From assembly GCA_964019425.1 (NCBI GenBank), contig OZ025790.1, positions 496,001-560,000 on the forward strand: 64,000 nucleotides of DNA, given 5' to 3'. The position numbers and the translations under genes are program-made. Positions 1,678-6,722 of this stretch are shown in pieces; within the stretch, counting starts at the first letter, position 1; each line of letters opens with the position of its first letter. Below the pieces are notes generated by a model. It did not search any database. It saw nothing but the letters and a program-made list of their open reading frames with translations, and was not told the DNA's origin. The DNA comes from Flectonema sp. DT1601. Lineage: Eukaryota.

Positions 1678-1840
1678 AACTTGTCGTTAATAAACATTTC
1701 CACGTGACGTGTTGCGTTAAACAATTATTTCTCTCAGCAGGTGTGTTCCAAAATGAATTTATTAGCAGTTTGATCCGTTGATTTTCTTTTAGTGATGTCT
1801 GTGAGGGCTGCTTTGGCTTTTGGATTCCTCATCTCTCAAG

Positions 1841-1911
1841 TAAGGAAGGCGTTTGAGTGGCTACCTGCTTATACCTGTGGTGGTAGTTGCATAGGTCCCT
1901 ATCCAAGATCA
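1841..1911 (+). ncRNA. Single-hairpin H/ACA (AGA) snoRNA predicted to guide LSU pseudouridine equivalent to yeast 25S Psi1042; copies at 2260-2330, 2679-2749, 3098-3168, 3493-3563
   Basis: Lower stem GGAAGG/CCTATCC; upper stem GTGGCTACC/GGTAGTTGC; AGA at 1906-1908, 15 nt from the upper stem. Pocket strands GTTTGA and ATAGGTC pair with conserved LSU GACCUAU-Psi-C-UCAAAC. Confidence 0.85.
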
Positions 1912-1944
1912 TTGGTGGCATTCCTTATCCGTATTCTTGTTTTC

Positions 1945-2015
1945 TAAGGACCTTCAAATACCTCCGTTGACTTTCTCTTGTAGTCTCTGTGAGGGCCGCT
2001 TTGAGTTCGAGATCA
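1945..2015 (+). ncRNA. Single-hairpin H/ACA (AGA) snoRNA predicted to guide SSU pseudouridine equivalent to yeast 18S Psi1181; copies at 2364-2434, 2783-2853, 3202-3272, 3597-3667
   Basis: Lower stem GGAC/GTTC; upper stems CCTC/GAGG and GACT/AGTC; AGA at 2010-2012, 15 nt from the upper stem. Pocket strands TCAAAT and GCCGC pair with SSU GCGGC-Psi-U-A-AUUUGA. Confidence 0.75.
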
Positions 2016-2039
2016 CTTGTTTCCTTCAATCTGTTTGTG

Positions 2040-2127
2040 TAAAGGTGATGAATGAATACAATTCCGTGTTTCACATGAATACTTAATGAGTTATAAAACT
2101 GTATTCGGGTCTCAACAATCTGATCTG
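2040..2127 (+). ncRNA. Box C/D snoRNA guiding 2'-O-methylation in LSU UGAAACACGGA; copies at 2459-2546, 2878-2965, 3297-3384, 3692-3779
   Basis: Box C GTGATGA 2045-2051; D' ATGA 2075-2078; C'-like TTAATGA; box D CTGA 2120-2123. The 11-nt guide TCCGTGTTTCA (2063-2073) is perfectly antisense to conserved LSU UGAAACACGGA. Confidence 0.85.
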
Positions 2128-3853
2128 CTGGACTCTCGAGAGTTCTTTCTCTTGGAAGCCGCACACACATGCTGTTCATACATGTAGTGATATCCTCCTC
2201 CGACTTCTTTCTAAGGACTTCCGTTGGCTTTCTCTGTATAAGATTCCTCATCTCTCAAGTAAGGAAGGCGTTTGAGTGGCTACCTGCTTATACCTGTGGT
2301 GGTAGTTGCATAGGTCCCTATCCGAGATCATTGGTAGCTTTCCTTATCCGTATTCTTGTTTTCTAAGGACCTTCAAATACCTCCGTTGACTTTCTCTTGT
2401 AGTCTCTGTGAGGGCCGCTTTGAGTTCGAGACCACTAGTTTCCTTCAATCTGTTTGTGCAAAGGTGATGAATGAATACAATTCCGTGTTTCACATGAATA
2501 CTTAATGAGTTATAAAACTGTATTCGGGTCTCAACAATCTGATCTGCTGGACTCTCGAGAGTTCTTTCTCTTGGAAGCCGCACACACATGCTGTTCATAC
2601 ATGTAGTGATATCCTCCTCCGACTTCTTTCTAAGGACTTCCGTTGGCTTTCTCTGTATAAGATTCCTCATCTCTCAAGTAAGGAAGGCGTTTGAGTGGCT
2701 ATCTGCTTATACCTGTGGTGGTAGTTGCATAGGTCCCTATCCGAGATCATTGGTGGCATTCCTTATCCGCATTCTTGTTTTCTAAGGACCTTCAAATACC
2801 TCCGTTGACTTTCTCTTGTAGTCTCTGTGAGGGCCGCTTTGAGTTCGAGACTACTTGTTTCCTTCAATCTGTTTGTGTAAATGTGATGAATGAATACAAT
2901 TCCGTGTTTCACATGAATACTTAATGAGTTATAAAACTGTATTCGGGTCTCAACAATCTGATCTGCTGGACTCTCGAGAGTTCTTTCTCTTGGAAGCCGC
3001 ACACACATGCTGTTCATACATGTAGTGATATCCTCCTCCGACTTCTTTCTAAGGACTTCCGTTGGCTTTCTCTGTATAAGATTCCTCATCTCTCAAGTAA
3101 GGAAGGCGTTTGAGTGGCTATCTGCTTATACCTGTGGTGGTAGTTGCATAGGTCCCTATCCGAGATCATTGGTGGCATTCCTTATCCGCATTCTTGTTTT
3201 CTAAGGACCTTCAAATACCTCCGTTGACTTTCTCTTGTAGTCTCTGTGAGGGCCGCTTTGAGTTCGAGACCACTAGTTTCCTTCAATCTGTTTGTGCAAA
3301 GGTGATGAATGAATACAATTCCGTGTTTCACATGAATACTTAATGAGTTATAAAACTGTATTCGGGTCTCAACAATCTGATCTGCTGGACTCTCGAGAGT
3401 TCTTTCTCTTATACATGTAGTGATATCCTCCTCCGACTTCTTTCTAAGGACTTCCGTTGGCTTTCTCTGTATAAGATTCCTCATCTCTCAAGTAAGGAAG
3501 GCGTTTGAGTGGCTACCTGCTTATACCTGTGGTGGTAGTTGCATAGGTCCCTATCCGAGATCATTGGTGGCATTCCTTATCCGCATTCTTGTTTTCTAAG
3601 GACCTTCAAATACCTCCGTTGACTTCCTCTTGTAGTCTCTGTGAGGGCCGCTTTGAGTTCGAGATCACTTGTTTCCTTCAATCTGTTTGTGTAAAGGTGA
3701 TGAATGAATACAATTCCGTGTTTCACATGAATACTTAATGAGTTATAAAACTGTATTCGGGTCTCAACAATCTGATCTGCTGGATTCTCGAGAGTTCTTT
3801 CTTTCTTTTAAATACCGAAGTTGAATACGGAACTAAGGCCAAACTCTGAGCAG

Positions 3854-3929
3854 GAGGTAGAGGAAGCGATTTCGATAAAAGCCGATTACTTCAGGCTAGA
3901 AGTCGGCAAGGAAGGTTCTCACCAGAACG
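3854..3929 (+). ncRNA. Candidate single-copy AGA H/ACA-like snoRNA, target unidentified
   Basis: Lower stem GGTaGAGGA/TTCTCACC; upper stem GCCGATT/AGTCGGC; AGA at 3924-3926, 16 nt from the upper stem. Lies directly after the snoRNA array. Confidence 0.45.
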
Positions 3930-4034
3930 CCCCTTAACAATTTGTGAGATACGTCTTTGGGGAAGGGAAAGTACCAACTGAGATATAGACAAGATTAGTT
4001 ACGTAGTATTTATTACAGGCACAGATAAAATAAA

Positions 4035-6722
4035 ATGACAGTTGACGAGCAAGTTGAACAACTTGCGTCAGAAGTTGCTAAGCTAAGAGAAGCAGTTAGA
4101 GATGACAAAGTACTCAGAGACAAAGTCTCTGAATTAGAGCGGGTAGCACATGGTCCTAATGCTGGAGGGGGAGGTGTTTGGAAACGTTCATGGGCAGATG
4201 GTCTTGTTGAAGCACCGCCTGATGTTATCTTTGGACTTGCAGCTCGTTATAAAGAAGACAAACATCCTCAGAAAGTAGATCTTGTGGTCGGAGCTTACAG
4301 AACTGAGGAAGGAAAACCATACTTACTGCCGTCAGTTGCAGAAGCTGAAAGAAGATTAGCAGAACAAAGACTTCGTAAGGATTATGCTCCTATTCTAGGT
4401 CTACCAAAATTCCGTCATGCTTCCGCAGCATTAGTTCTTGGTGACGATTCACCAGCTTTAAATGAGGGACGAGTTGCTACTTGTCAGTCACTCTCAGGTA
4501 CTGGTGCTTTATCGTTAGTTGGTTATTTGTATGCGAGATTTGTTCCAATTCAAACACAAGTGTTGTTGTCGAATCCAACTTGGGCCAATCATAAATCTAT
4601 TTTTGATTATGTTGGTTTTAGAAACTTTGTTAATTATCCTTATTGGGATGAGGCAAAGAGAAAGTTTGACTACGAAGGAATGCTTCGTTCGTTGAATGAA
4701 GCACCACAAAGAAGTATTGTTATTCTTCATCTGTGTGCTCACAATCCAACTGGATGTGATCCAACACTTGCTCAATGGAGAGGAATTGGTAGGGTTTGTT
4801 GGGAGAGAAGGCATCATGTTGTATTCGACAGCGCTTATCAAGGTTACGCTTCTGGTGACTTAGAACGTGACGCATGGCCAGCACGTCTCTTTGAAAGAGA
4901 ACTTGGCCTTGAATTCGCCATAACCCAATCGTACAGTAAAAACATGGGACTATACGGAGAGCGTATTGGTTGTTTTAGTTACATAACAAAGACTAAATCA
5001 TCTGCGGAAGCCATCCAAGAACAAGTCAAAGTAATTGCCAGAAGAACTTACAGCAACCCTCCAGTCCACGGAGCACTCCTCGTCACAACAATCTTAAAAG
5101 ATAAAGAATTATCAAAGCAATGGGAAAAGGAACTCTCAGGCATGTCTAATCGTATTATGAAGATGAGAACTGAACTTCAAAAGCACTTAATCAAAAAGAA
5201 GGTACCTGGAAATTGGGATCACATTGTTAGTCAAATCGGTATGTTCTCCTTCACTGGAATGACCAAGGCACAGTGTAAGACAATGGTCGAGAGATTTCAT
5301 GTTTATATGTTGGGTAATGGAAGAATATCAATGGCGGGACTTAACACAAACAACGTCGAGTATGTAGCAAATGCCATGGCGGCATCGATTAGGGCAAACC
5401 CTGCAGCACAGATTGAAGATGTTGGTACTAACGGAGACATTGAAGAAATCGTACCGAAAATTGATCCTTTGAGACTTCCTTCACCATTAGGTCAGTGGAC
5501 ACAGCTGACTGTACCTGTTTCTGATCCTATCTTTGGAGCTTATGAGAAGTATAAGAAGGATTCTCGTGATGAAAAGGTCAACCTTCTCCTTGTCGCTGAC
5601 GGTCGTTCAATTGGAAGCAAATCTCACTTACTACTATCCGTAGCTCAGGCTGAAGAAAATCTCGCTGAAGCAAGAGGGCTAAAGGAATACATGCCTATTG
5701 ATGGTGCAGCAGATTTCAGAAAAGCATCTGCTTCTCTAATTTTAGGAAGTGATAGTCCTGCACTCCAAGAGAACAGAGTAGCGACATGTCAGAGTATTTC
5801 AGGAACAGGTGCATTGTCACTTGTGGCGGCGCTCCTATCAAGATTCTTACCGATTGAGACTAACGTTGTTTTAGCAAGACCTACGTGGTCTAATCATCGA
5901 TCGATATTTGAGTTTTGTGGGTTTCGTAATTTTGTTAATCATCGTTATTGGAATGAACAAAAGAAGAGACTTGACATCGATGGTATGTTAGAAGATCTTA
6001 AGAACGCTCCAACAAGATCAATTGTGATCCTTCAGTTGTGTGCTCATAACCCAACTGGATGTGATCCAAGTAGAGAAGATTGGCGTAGAATCGGAAGAAT
6101 CTGTTGGGAAAAACGTCATAACATTGTCCTTGACTGTGCCTACCAGGGTTACGCCTCTGGTGATCTTGAAAGAGATGCGTGGCCAGCAAGACTACTGGAG
6201 AGGGAGATTGGTTTGGAATTTGCCATCACGCAATCATTTTCAAAACCTCTTGGACTCTACAGCGAGAGAATCGGTTGCCTTTCTTATGTTTGTAAAACTG
6301 AAAGAGCAGCGCGTGCCATTCAATCACAAGTAAAAACTCTTGTGAGAAGAACCTACAGCAACCCACCACTCCATGGTGCTCGAATTGTAACAACTATCCT
6401 TAATGATGCGGATTTAAAAACACTTTGGGAAAAGGAACTTCAAGCGATGGCCTACCGAATTACTCGTCTGAGAGGAGAACTTCTCGCGGAGTTGGAGCAA
6501 CTTAGCACTCCAGGCGATTGGTCTCATTTCACTGATAAGAATGAAATGGGAATGTTTTCTCACACCGGATTGACAAGAAAACAGGTTGAAATGATGAGAA
6601 AAGAACACGCTGTTTACATGTTGAAAACAGGAAGACTTTCATGGCCAGGACTGACGTCGAAGAATATCATGAGAGTAGCCAAGGCTATTGATGACGTCGT
6701 TCGTAATGAAAGTCGTCTTTAG
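4035..6722 (+). CDS. GOT: Tandem two-domain aspartate aminotransferase with N-terminal coiled coil and C-terminal PTS1 (SRL)
   Basis: Two complete class I AAT domains, each with SxSGTGAL, PTWxNH, HNPTG, DxAYQG, SxSK (PLP lysine) xxGLYxERIG, RRTYSNPP and GR motifs. Ends ESRL*. Confidence 0.95.
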   Translation: MTVDEQVEQLASEVAKLREAVRDDKVLRDKVSELERVAHGPNAGGGGVWKRSWADGLVEAPPDVIFGLAARYKEDKHPQKVDLVVGAYRTEEGKPYLLPSVAEAERRLAEQRLRKDYAPILGLPKFRHASAALVLGDDSPALNEGRVATCQSLSGTGALSLVGYLYARFVPIQTQVLLSNPTWANHKSIFDYVGFRNFVNYPYWDEAKRKFDYEGMLRSLNEAPQRSIVILHLCAHNPTGCDPTLAQWRGIGRVCWERRHHVVFDSAYQGYASGDLERDAWPARLFERELGLEFAITQSYSKNMGLYGERIGCFSYITKTKSSAEAIQEQVKVIARRTYSNPPVHGALLVTTILKDKELSKQWEKELSGMSNRIMKMRTELQKHLIKKKVPGNWDHIVSQIGMFSFTGMTKAQCKTMVERFHVYMLGNGRISMAGLNTNNVEYVANAMAASIRANPAAQIEDVGTNGDIEEIVPKIDPLRLPSPLGQWTQLTVPVSDPIFGAYEKYKKDSRDEKVNLLLVADGRSIGSKSHLLLSVAQAEENLAEARGLKEYMPIDGAADFRKASASLILGSDSPALQENRVATCQSISGTGALSLVAALLSRFLPIETNVVLARPTWSNHRSIFEFCGFRNFVNHRYWNEQKKRLDIDGMLEDLKNAPTRSIVILQLCAHNPTGCDPSREDWRRIGRICWEKRHNIVLDCAYQGYASGDLERDAWPARLLEREIGLEFAITQSFSKPLGLYSERIGCLSYVCKTERAARAIQSQVKTLVRRTYSNPPLHGARIVTTILNDADLKTLWEKELQAMAYRITRLRGELLAELEQLSTPGDWSHFTDKNEMGMFSHTGLTRKQVEMMRKEHAVYMLKTGRLSWPGLTSKNIMRVAKAIDDVVRNESRL

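Follow-up and report, generated by a model that had tools for sequence, protein, structure and literature searches.

The 64-kb stretch of DNA analysed here (the window) carries, between positions 1823 and 3802, a tandem array with a period of 419 bp, 4.8 copies and 96% matches (Tandem Repeats Finder). The array is flanked by a PPR gene on its 5' side and an aspartate aminotransferase gene on its 3' side, both on the same strand as the array. Per unit, two putative 71-nt single-hairpin AGA RNA genes (AGA1 and AGA2) and one putative C/D RNA gene were identified, each present in five copies. An earlier note had described this 419-bp satellite as a snoRNA cluster with one C/D and two AGA guides repeated five times; its boxes, hairpins and copy numbers were confirmed, and its reading as a snoRNA cluster is supported. 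Its inventory of the unit was correct for the three five-copy elements but had overlooked decayed copies of AGA2 and the guide in front of box D. The features are listed below.

1823..3802, + strand: tandem array, 4.8 x 419 bp, between the PPR gene (end 1677) and the double-domain aspartate aminotransferase gene (start 4035)
1841..1911, + strand: AGA1 copy 1, single-hairpin AGA guide, pocket strands GUUUGA / AUAGGUC
2260..2330, + strand: AGA1 copy 2
2679..2749, + strand: AGA1 copy 3
3098..3168, + strand: AGA1 copy 4
3493..3563, + strand: AGA1 copy 5
1945..2015, + strand: AGA2 copy 1, single-hairpin AGA guide, pocket strands UCAAAU(A) / GCCGC
2364..2434, + strand: AGA2 copy 2
2783..2853, + strand: AGA2 copy 3
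3202..3272, + strand: AGA2 copy 4
3597..3667, + strand: AGA2 copy 5
2045..2123, + strand: C/D RNA copy 1, box C to box D, with D' AUGA at 2075 and guides before D' and D
2464..2542, + strand: C/D RNA copy 2
2883..2961, + strand: C/D RNA copy 3
3302..3380, + strand: C/D RNA copy 4
3697..3775, + strand: C/D RNA copy 5
1758..1825, + strand: decayed AGA2 paralogue immediately 5' of the array, pocket altered and AGA box gone
2204..2241, + strand: truncated AGA2 paralogue, at the 3' end of every full unit
2152..2203, + strand: hairpin X, without AGA box
1925..2251 and copies, − strand: open reading frame of 108 aa, open in all four full units

Array copies and genomic setting

The copies are not identical. 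Twelve of the first 328 columns vary among the five of them, unit 4 carries a 24-nt deletion and the last unit (5) breaks off after the C/D gene, which fits true tandem copies rather than a single read repeated. Boxes, guides and pockets are free of variable columns; of the 12, seven lie within 107 spacer nucleotides and five within 221 RNA nucleotides, counts that are too small for proof of selection. The C/D gene shows no variation at all, a substitution in the AGA1 stem retains the pair as U-G, and pocket and box are retained in all five copies of AGA2.

Remnants of further AGA2 genes were found next to the intact ones. For both the decayed paralogue in front of the array and the truncated paralogue, whose TAAGGAC begins at 2212, 2631, 3050 and 3445, the similarity score was matched by 0 of 2000 shuffles, pointing to past duplication and loss. 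Unequal crossing-over would account for the increase in copy number, for the deletion in unit 4 and for the AGA2 remnants. Hairpin X bears a weak likeness to AGA1 (60 of 2000 shuffles), its 5' arm is removed by the deletion in unit 4, and 8 of its nucleotides are complementary to an SSU stretch just before the AGA2 target. A role as third AGA guide was rejected, since the AGA box is missing and the matches of 8-9 nt to rRNA are within chance; hairpin X may be a defunct guide or an auxiliary element.

The host had been called a probable diplonemid, and the Vps16 protein encoded in the window bears this out. It is 80% identical to that of Flectonema neradi and 42-47% identical to those of four other diplonemids, and in a quick maximum-likelihood tree (18 of 71 hits, midpoint-drawn) the window and F. 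neradi are sisters with an SH-aLRT support of 100. The Vps16 reading frame enters a GT...poly-T...AG stretch at about 10400-10470, and its orthologues are about 110 aa longer; from the sequence, this stretch is likely a short cis-intron. The + strand holds 26 of the 27 open reading frames of at least 150 aa, in agreement with the claim that the array is co-oriented within a protein-coding gene cluster. Unidirectional gene clusters are described for Diplonema papillatum (PMC10161547). The downstream aminotransferase gene (4035-6722) encodes two full tandem domains in 895 aa; double-form aspartate aminotransferases also occur in several EukProt entries, one of them labelled Sulcionema.

Structure of the AGA and C/D RNAs

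All ten 71-nt elements begin with TAAGGA and carry AGA at nucleotides 66-68, so that they end three nucleotides past the box. The 3' pocket strand begins 15 nt ahead of AGA in both AGA1 and AGA2. The two hairpins of about 71 nt with a TAAGGA start, an AGA+3 end and 15-nt spacing were thus found as previously proposed. When the pockets were held open, AGA1 folded into a 6-bp stem I with a one-nucleotide bulge, a GUUUGA / AUAGGUC pocket and a long upper stem, and AGA2 into a 5-bp stem I including G-U pairs, likewise with a one-nucleotide bulge, a UCAAAUA / GCCGC pocket and an interrupted upper stem. Stem II next to the pocket has 9 pairs in AGA1 and 4 in AGA2. In both, A3 precedes the stem and one unpaired nucleotide (65) separates stem I from AGA. 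The folding energies of the hairpins are no better than those of shuffled sequences (z from -0.73 to +0.38).

These folds can be compared with the consensus for guides of the AGA type (PMC2613932), which consist of one hairpin of 57-91 nt with the AGA box at its end, a mature 3' end 3 nt past AGA and a 5' end 1-3 nt ahead of stem I. An A stands directly before stem I, 1-3 unpaired nucleotides lie between stem I and AGA, stem I has 5-8 bp and is usually perfect, and a perfect stem II of at least 3 bp adjoins a bipartite pocket with 3-9 nt on each side of the U, located 13-16 nt from AGA. A further criterion in that work is expression with destabilisation upon loss of CBF5. AGA1 and AGA2 agree with the excerpted consensus in length, single hairpin, AGA box, A3, unpaired nucleotide, stem II and, on surrogate rRNA, bipartite pocket; among these sequence features they depart from it only by the imperfect stem I. 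Eight other TAAGGA/TCAGGA...AGA strings in the window were discarded, since by eye their folds are unlike guides. In the spacer at 1920-1930 and its copies, TTCCTTA can pair with TAAGGAA at the 5' end of AGA1 in a folded precursor; in this modelled form the pairing is like a flanking processing stem.

C/D guides carry RUGAUGA box C and CUGA box D at their ends with degenerate C'/D' boxes inside, and an antisense element of 10-21 nt adjoins D or D', with the target opposite its fifth nucleotide (PMC5699541). The element of the array has box C GUGAUGA at 2045, D' AUGA at 2075 and box D CUGA at 2120, with a C'-like AUGAGU inside as judged by eye. Its boxes and its antisense elements agree with this description. 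Antisense elements precede both D' and D, which would make it a double-guide C/D RNA. The C/D element that had been noted in each unit was found from box C to box D over 79 nt, in five identical copies. Rfam gave no match at gathering threshold in the window, and the best weak matches were to unrelated C/D families, with 15.7-19.1 bits against thresholds of 35-47.

Predicted targets in rRNA

Pairing was scored against three eukaryotic rDNA contigs delimited by Rfam (L096, L030 and L067), taken from 152 loci and used as surrogates rather than being host rRNA. L096 and L067 had been picked by the D-guide pattern and L030 by the AGA2 target pattern, which makes those cells of the comparison circular. 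The earlier note had named matches of three guides to conserved LSU, SSU and LSU rRNA, and these were the top-scoring sites for the AGA1 pocket, the AGA2 pocket and the D' guide in all three surrogates, except that the AGA2 pairing contains one mismatch. The AGA1 pocket forms 13-14 bp (7-8 + 6) at one LSU site, 15 nt from AGA, a score reached by 0, 1 and 0 of 100 shuffled rRNAs for the three surrogates. The AGA2 pocket scores 10 at one SSU site with 5 + 6 bp, also 15 nt from AGA; the mismatch adjoins the unpaired dinucleotide, and 8, 4 and 2 of 100 shuffles reach this score. For the D' guide, 11 bp were found in each surrogate, and shuffles reach this in 8, 3 and 6 of 100 cases. The D guide scores 14.5 in L096 and L067 (0 of 100 shuffles, but circular), a value not reached in L030. 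On eight LSU sites chosen independently of this guide, its 8-nt core was paired in all eight and a U stood at +5 in four.

When every one of the 2,761 AGA triplets in the window was put through a loose scan, 11 scored at least 13, namely the five AGA1 copies and six others, none of the latter with a 9-pair upper stem like that of AGA1. A score of at least 10 was reached by 320 triplets. AGA1 therefore stands above the background of the window, and AGA2 lies at background. The window contains 38 pairs of box C and box D, of which only the five array copies had both guides at a score of at least 10 (the D score being circular); seven other rows had one such guide.

The predicted target nucleotides correspond to the following modification sites.

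AGA1: LSU U = L. major Psi1093, T. brucei Psi1167, human Psi1769, yeast Psi1042
AGA2: SSU U = L. major Psi1533, human Psi1238, yeast Psi1181
D' guide: LSU Am = L. major Am678 / T. brucei 743 / human Am1310
D guide: LSU Um = L. major Um847 / T. brucei 916

The register was tested with spacing patterns from the human table (PMC6182160), which lists 228 modified positions among 7,090 nt. The patterns around 18S Psi1238, 28S Am1310 and 28S Psi1769 fit the predicted targets only at shift 0, out of 17 shifts and in two of two surrogates. By the same spacing, the pseudouridine targets equal yeast Psi1181 (snR85) and Psi1042 (snR33) (PMC5699541). The T. brucei counterpart of LSU Psi1093 is numbered 1167 in PMC11156624 and 1166 in PMC10662448. 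L. major SSU Psi1533 has been detected by LC-MS and cryo-EM, and T. brucei has no entry for it in the rows excerpted from PMC11156624. The Um847-equivalent site lies 9 nt before a conserved Gm and has no entry in the excerpted human (PMC6182160) and yeast (PMC5699541) tables or among the excerpted Arabidopsis rows (PMC8583080). Arabidopsis Um803 was ruled out as the same site, as it lies 11 nt before Gm814 instead of the predicted 9 nt. Three of the four predicted sites are thus modified in human rRNA too.

Taken at the level of sequence, the strongest argument is that each of the four guides of a unit would be directed at a nucleotide measured as carrying the matching kind of modification. 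This agreement also rescues AGA2 and the D guide, for which the statistics of pairing are weak or circular.

The trypanosomatid guides for these sites (supplement rows of PMC11156624 and PMC13487219) were compared by eye. LM29Cs1H3 / TB3Cs2H2, for LSU Psi1093 / Psi1167 (PMC11156624), have the GUUUGA-G and C-AUAGG pocket in common with AGA1 as well as the closing G-C pair, whereas stems and loop appear unrelated. This likeness could reflect either common descent or convergence on one target. LM36Cs3H2, for SSU Psi1533 (PMC11156624), resembles AGA2 in its 5' pocket UCAAAU, its 14-15-nt spacing and the CCU/AGG opening of the upper stem; it differs by a 3' pocket ACCGU instead of GCCGC and by a U where AGA2 has A, and the Leishmania RNA is much longer. 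In LM35Cs3C3 / TB9Cs2C2, for LSU Am678 / 743 (PMC13487219), the 11-nt D' guide UCCGUGUUUCA is identical, stands one nucleotide before D' and occupies the equal place after box C. The other targets listed for that RNA are LSU 695 and 697, whereas here the second guide would address the Um847 equivalent. Finally, LM27Cs1C2 / TB11Cs4C2, for LSU Um847 / 916 and 858 / 927 (PMC13487219), have a guide in the +5 register of the D guide on the same rRNA stretch. There the Um847 guide precedes D' and is partnered by the guide for 858; here it precedes D and is partnered by the Am678 guide. The two methylation guides that share one RNA here are therefore split over two genes in trypanosomatids.

The overall organisation is alike in the mixed clusters of trypanosomatids, with a single hairpin, AGA, 13-16-nt spacing, a mix with C/D genes, repeats and unidirectional gene clusters (PMC2613932, PMC4855143). 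It differs in that the four counterpart genes are found there in differently named clusters (LM29Cs1, LM36Cs3, LM35Cs3 and LM27Cs1; TB3Cs2, TB9Cs2 and TB11Cs4). Euglena gracilis has multi-copy linked C/D and H/ACA genes (PMC2784804) and single-hairpin guides (PMC2613932), as here. Repeated mixed clusters with single-hairpin AGA RNAs are hence on record for both trypanosomatids and Euglena (PMC2613932, PMC2784804), as the earlier note had stated. The C/D and AGA genes of the array, intermixed on one strand and tandemly repeated, fit the description of the euglenozoan mixed cluster. Judged on sequence, this organisation is the known trypanosomatid/Euglena type, and what appears new is the lineage and the combination of genes.

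Function, expression and evolutionary context

We consider it highly probable that the array is a five-fold amplified snoRNA cluster with two AGA guides and one double-guide C/D RNA per unit, targeting cytosolic rRNA. Each unit would then direct two pseudouridines and two ribose methylations. By analogy with trypanosomatids, RNA polymerase II would read through the gene cluster and yield a long precursor, which is probably trans-spliced and polyadenylated and would then be trimmed to the mature RNAs; the AGA RNAs would load Cbf5/Nop10/Nhp2/Gar1 and the C/D RNAs fibrillarin/Nop56/Nop58/Snu13.

The expression route is the least certain part of this mechanism. The RNAs may instead have no trans-spliced precursor of their own and be released from a host transcript, either the 3' UTR of the upstream PPR gene or a 5'-UTR intron of the downstream aminotransferase gene. 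Such a host is conceivable because no run of T or A in the array gap (1678-4034) exceeds 4, whereas 20 of the 21 other gaps contain one of 9-38; the long poly-T and poly-A tracts usual elsewhere are missing to either side of the array. Gaps were counted between + strand open reading frames, in 23 blocks, with three short or overlapping frames omitted or merged. The array begins 145 nt past the PPR stop, and long 3' UTRs and cis-introns occur in D. papillatum (PMC10161547). On the other hand, pyrimidine-rich AG sites are present at 1791 and 3819, the N-terminus of the aminotransferase aligns with its orthologues and the protein is complete without an upstream exon, and the snoRNA clusters of T. 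brucei are processed from trans-spliced, polyadenylated polycistronic precursors (PMC4855143). We regard the UTR or intron route as unlikely, though as the most serious of the alternatives; it touches only the way of expression and not the identity of the RNAs.

A second alternative accepts the cluster as real and denies AGA2 a working rRNA guide, taking it as an orphan, as a CBF5-independent AGA-like RNA or as a gene decaying like its flanking paralogues. Its pairing at background level, with a mismatch where the Leishmania guide pairs, would be in line with this, as would the two kinds of decayed AGA2 copies, the equivalent site without an entry in T. brucei and the expressed CBF5-independent AGA-like RNAs on record (PMC2613932). 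Yet the predicted U is a pseudouridine in human, yeast and Leishmania, and pocket and box are kept in five of five copies, so that we judge a non-guide AGA2 to be improbable.

The minus-strand frame raises the question of a tandem protein gene with 108 aa per unit, the snoRNA features being incidental. It runs without a stop through each full unit, the 24-nt deletion leaves the reading register intact, and only 13 of 1000 shuffled units contain a frame of at least 108 aa. It is, however, antisense to the gene cluster, four of the five variable codons among copies 1-3 alter the residue, a search limited to proteins 59-189 aa long gave no homologue at E <= 1, and it leaves four guides on modified nucleotides unexplained; a protein gene is thus very hard to credit. 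Equally far-fetched is a functionless satellite. Gene-adjacent tandem repeats in D. papillatum duplicate the 5' region of a gene, one of them with 12 copies of about 400 bp (PMC10161547), and the folding energies here are ordinary. The unit of the array, however, shows no resemblance to the sequence ahead of the aminotransferase gene (equally good scores in 994 of 2000 shuffles), and boxes, spacing and four target matches would be unexpected in a satellite.

As an amplified snoRNA cluster, the array bears on the evolution of rRNA modification in Euglenozoa. Trypanosome-style guide genes would extend to a sister group, the diplonemids, which form the third of the main branches of Euglenozoa. 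In the excerpts of PMC9082867, diplonemid 28S rRNA is contiguous in nine species, none of them Flectonema, and the order in which rRNA modifications and extra spacers originated is called a "chicken or egg" question, one for which data from diplonemids are required. A guide of the Um847 type bears on whether modification came before fragmentation because the diplonemid 28S is unfragmented, and a guide for a site hitherto seen only in trypanosomatids would be one concrete test of that order. Diplonemids with a one-piece 28S may carry extra modifications of the kinetoplastid type, the C/D RNA of the array guiding the Um847 equivalent and joining two guides that are split in trypanosomatids; in that case the fragmentation of 28S would be younger than both the extra modification and the single-hairpin AGA guides. 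We hold this to be close to an even call, leaning slightly against. One common site cannot settle the order, and convergence may have produced it.

Descriptions of diplonemid snoRNAs were not found, including in the excerpted passages of PMC10161547, PMC9082867 and PMC11613528, with thin coverage of subscription papers, and the word snoRNA has no occurrence in the main text of the D. papillatum genome paper as excerpted (PMC10161547). The cluster supplies seeds for cataloguing the diplonemid guide set, and it illustrates that snoRNA clusters of this type can pass for satellites in annotation. A metagenome scan for paired C/D guides gave no match. An LSU pattern derived from the D guide retrieved 114 metagenomic loci, none identifiable as diplonemid, and a scan of viral contigs yielded two short LSU fragments only. 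Within the IMG/VR contig L002, a eukaryotic LSU rRNA fragment at 3093-3280 stands at the end of an RNA-virus-like coding sequence and is probably an assembly chimera. Many of the GTDB bacterial records (L003-L038) contain contigs with eukaryotic 18S/28S, an estimated 390 or so stretches of contamination.
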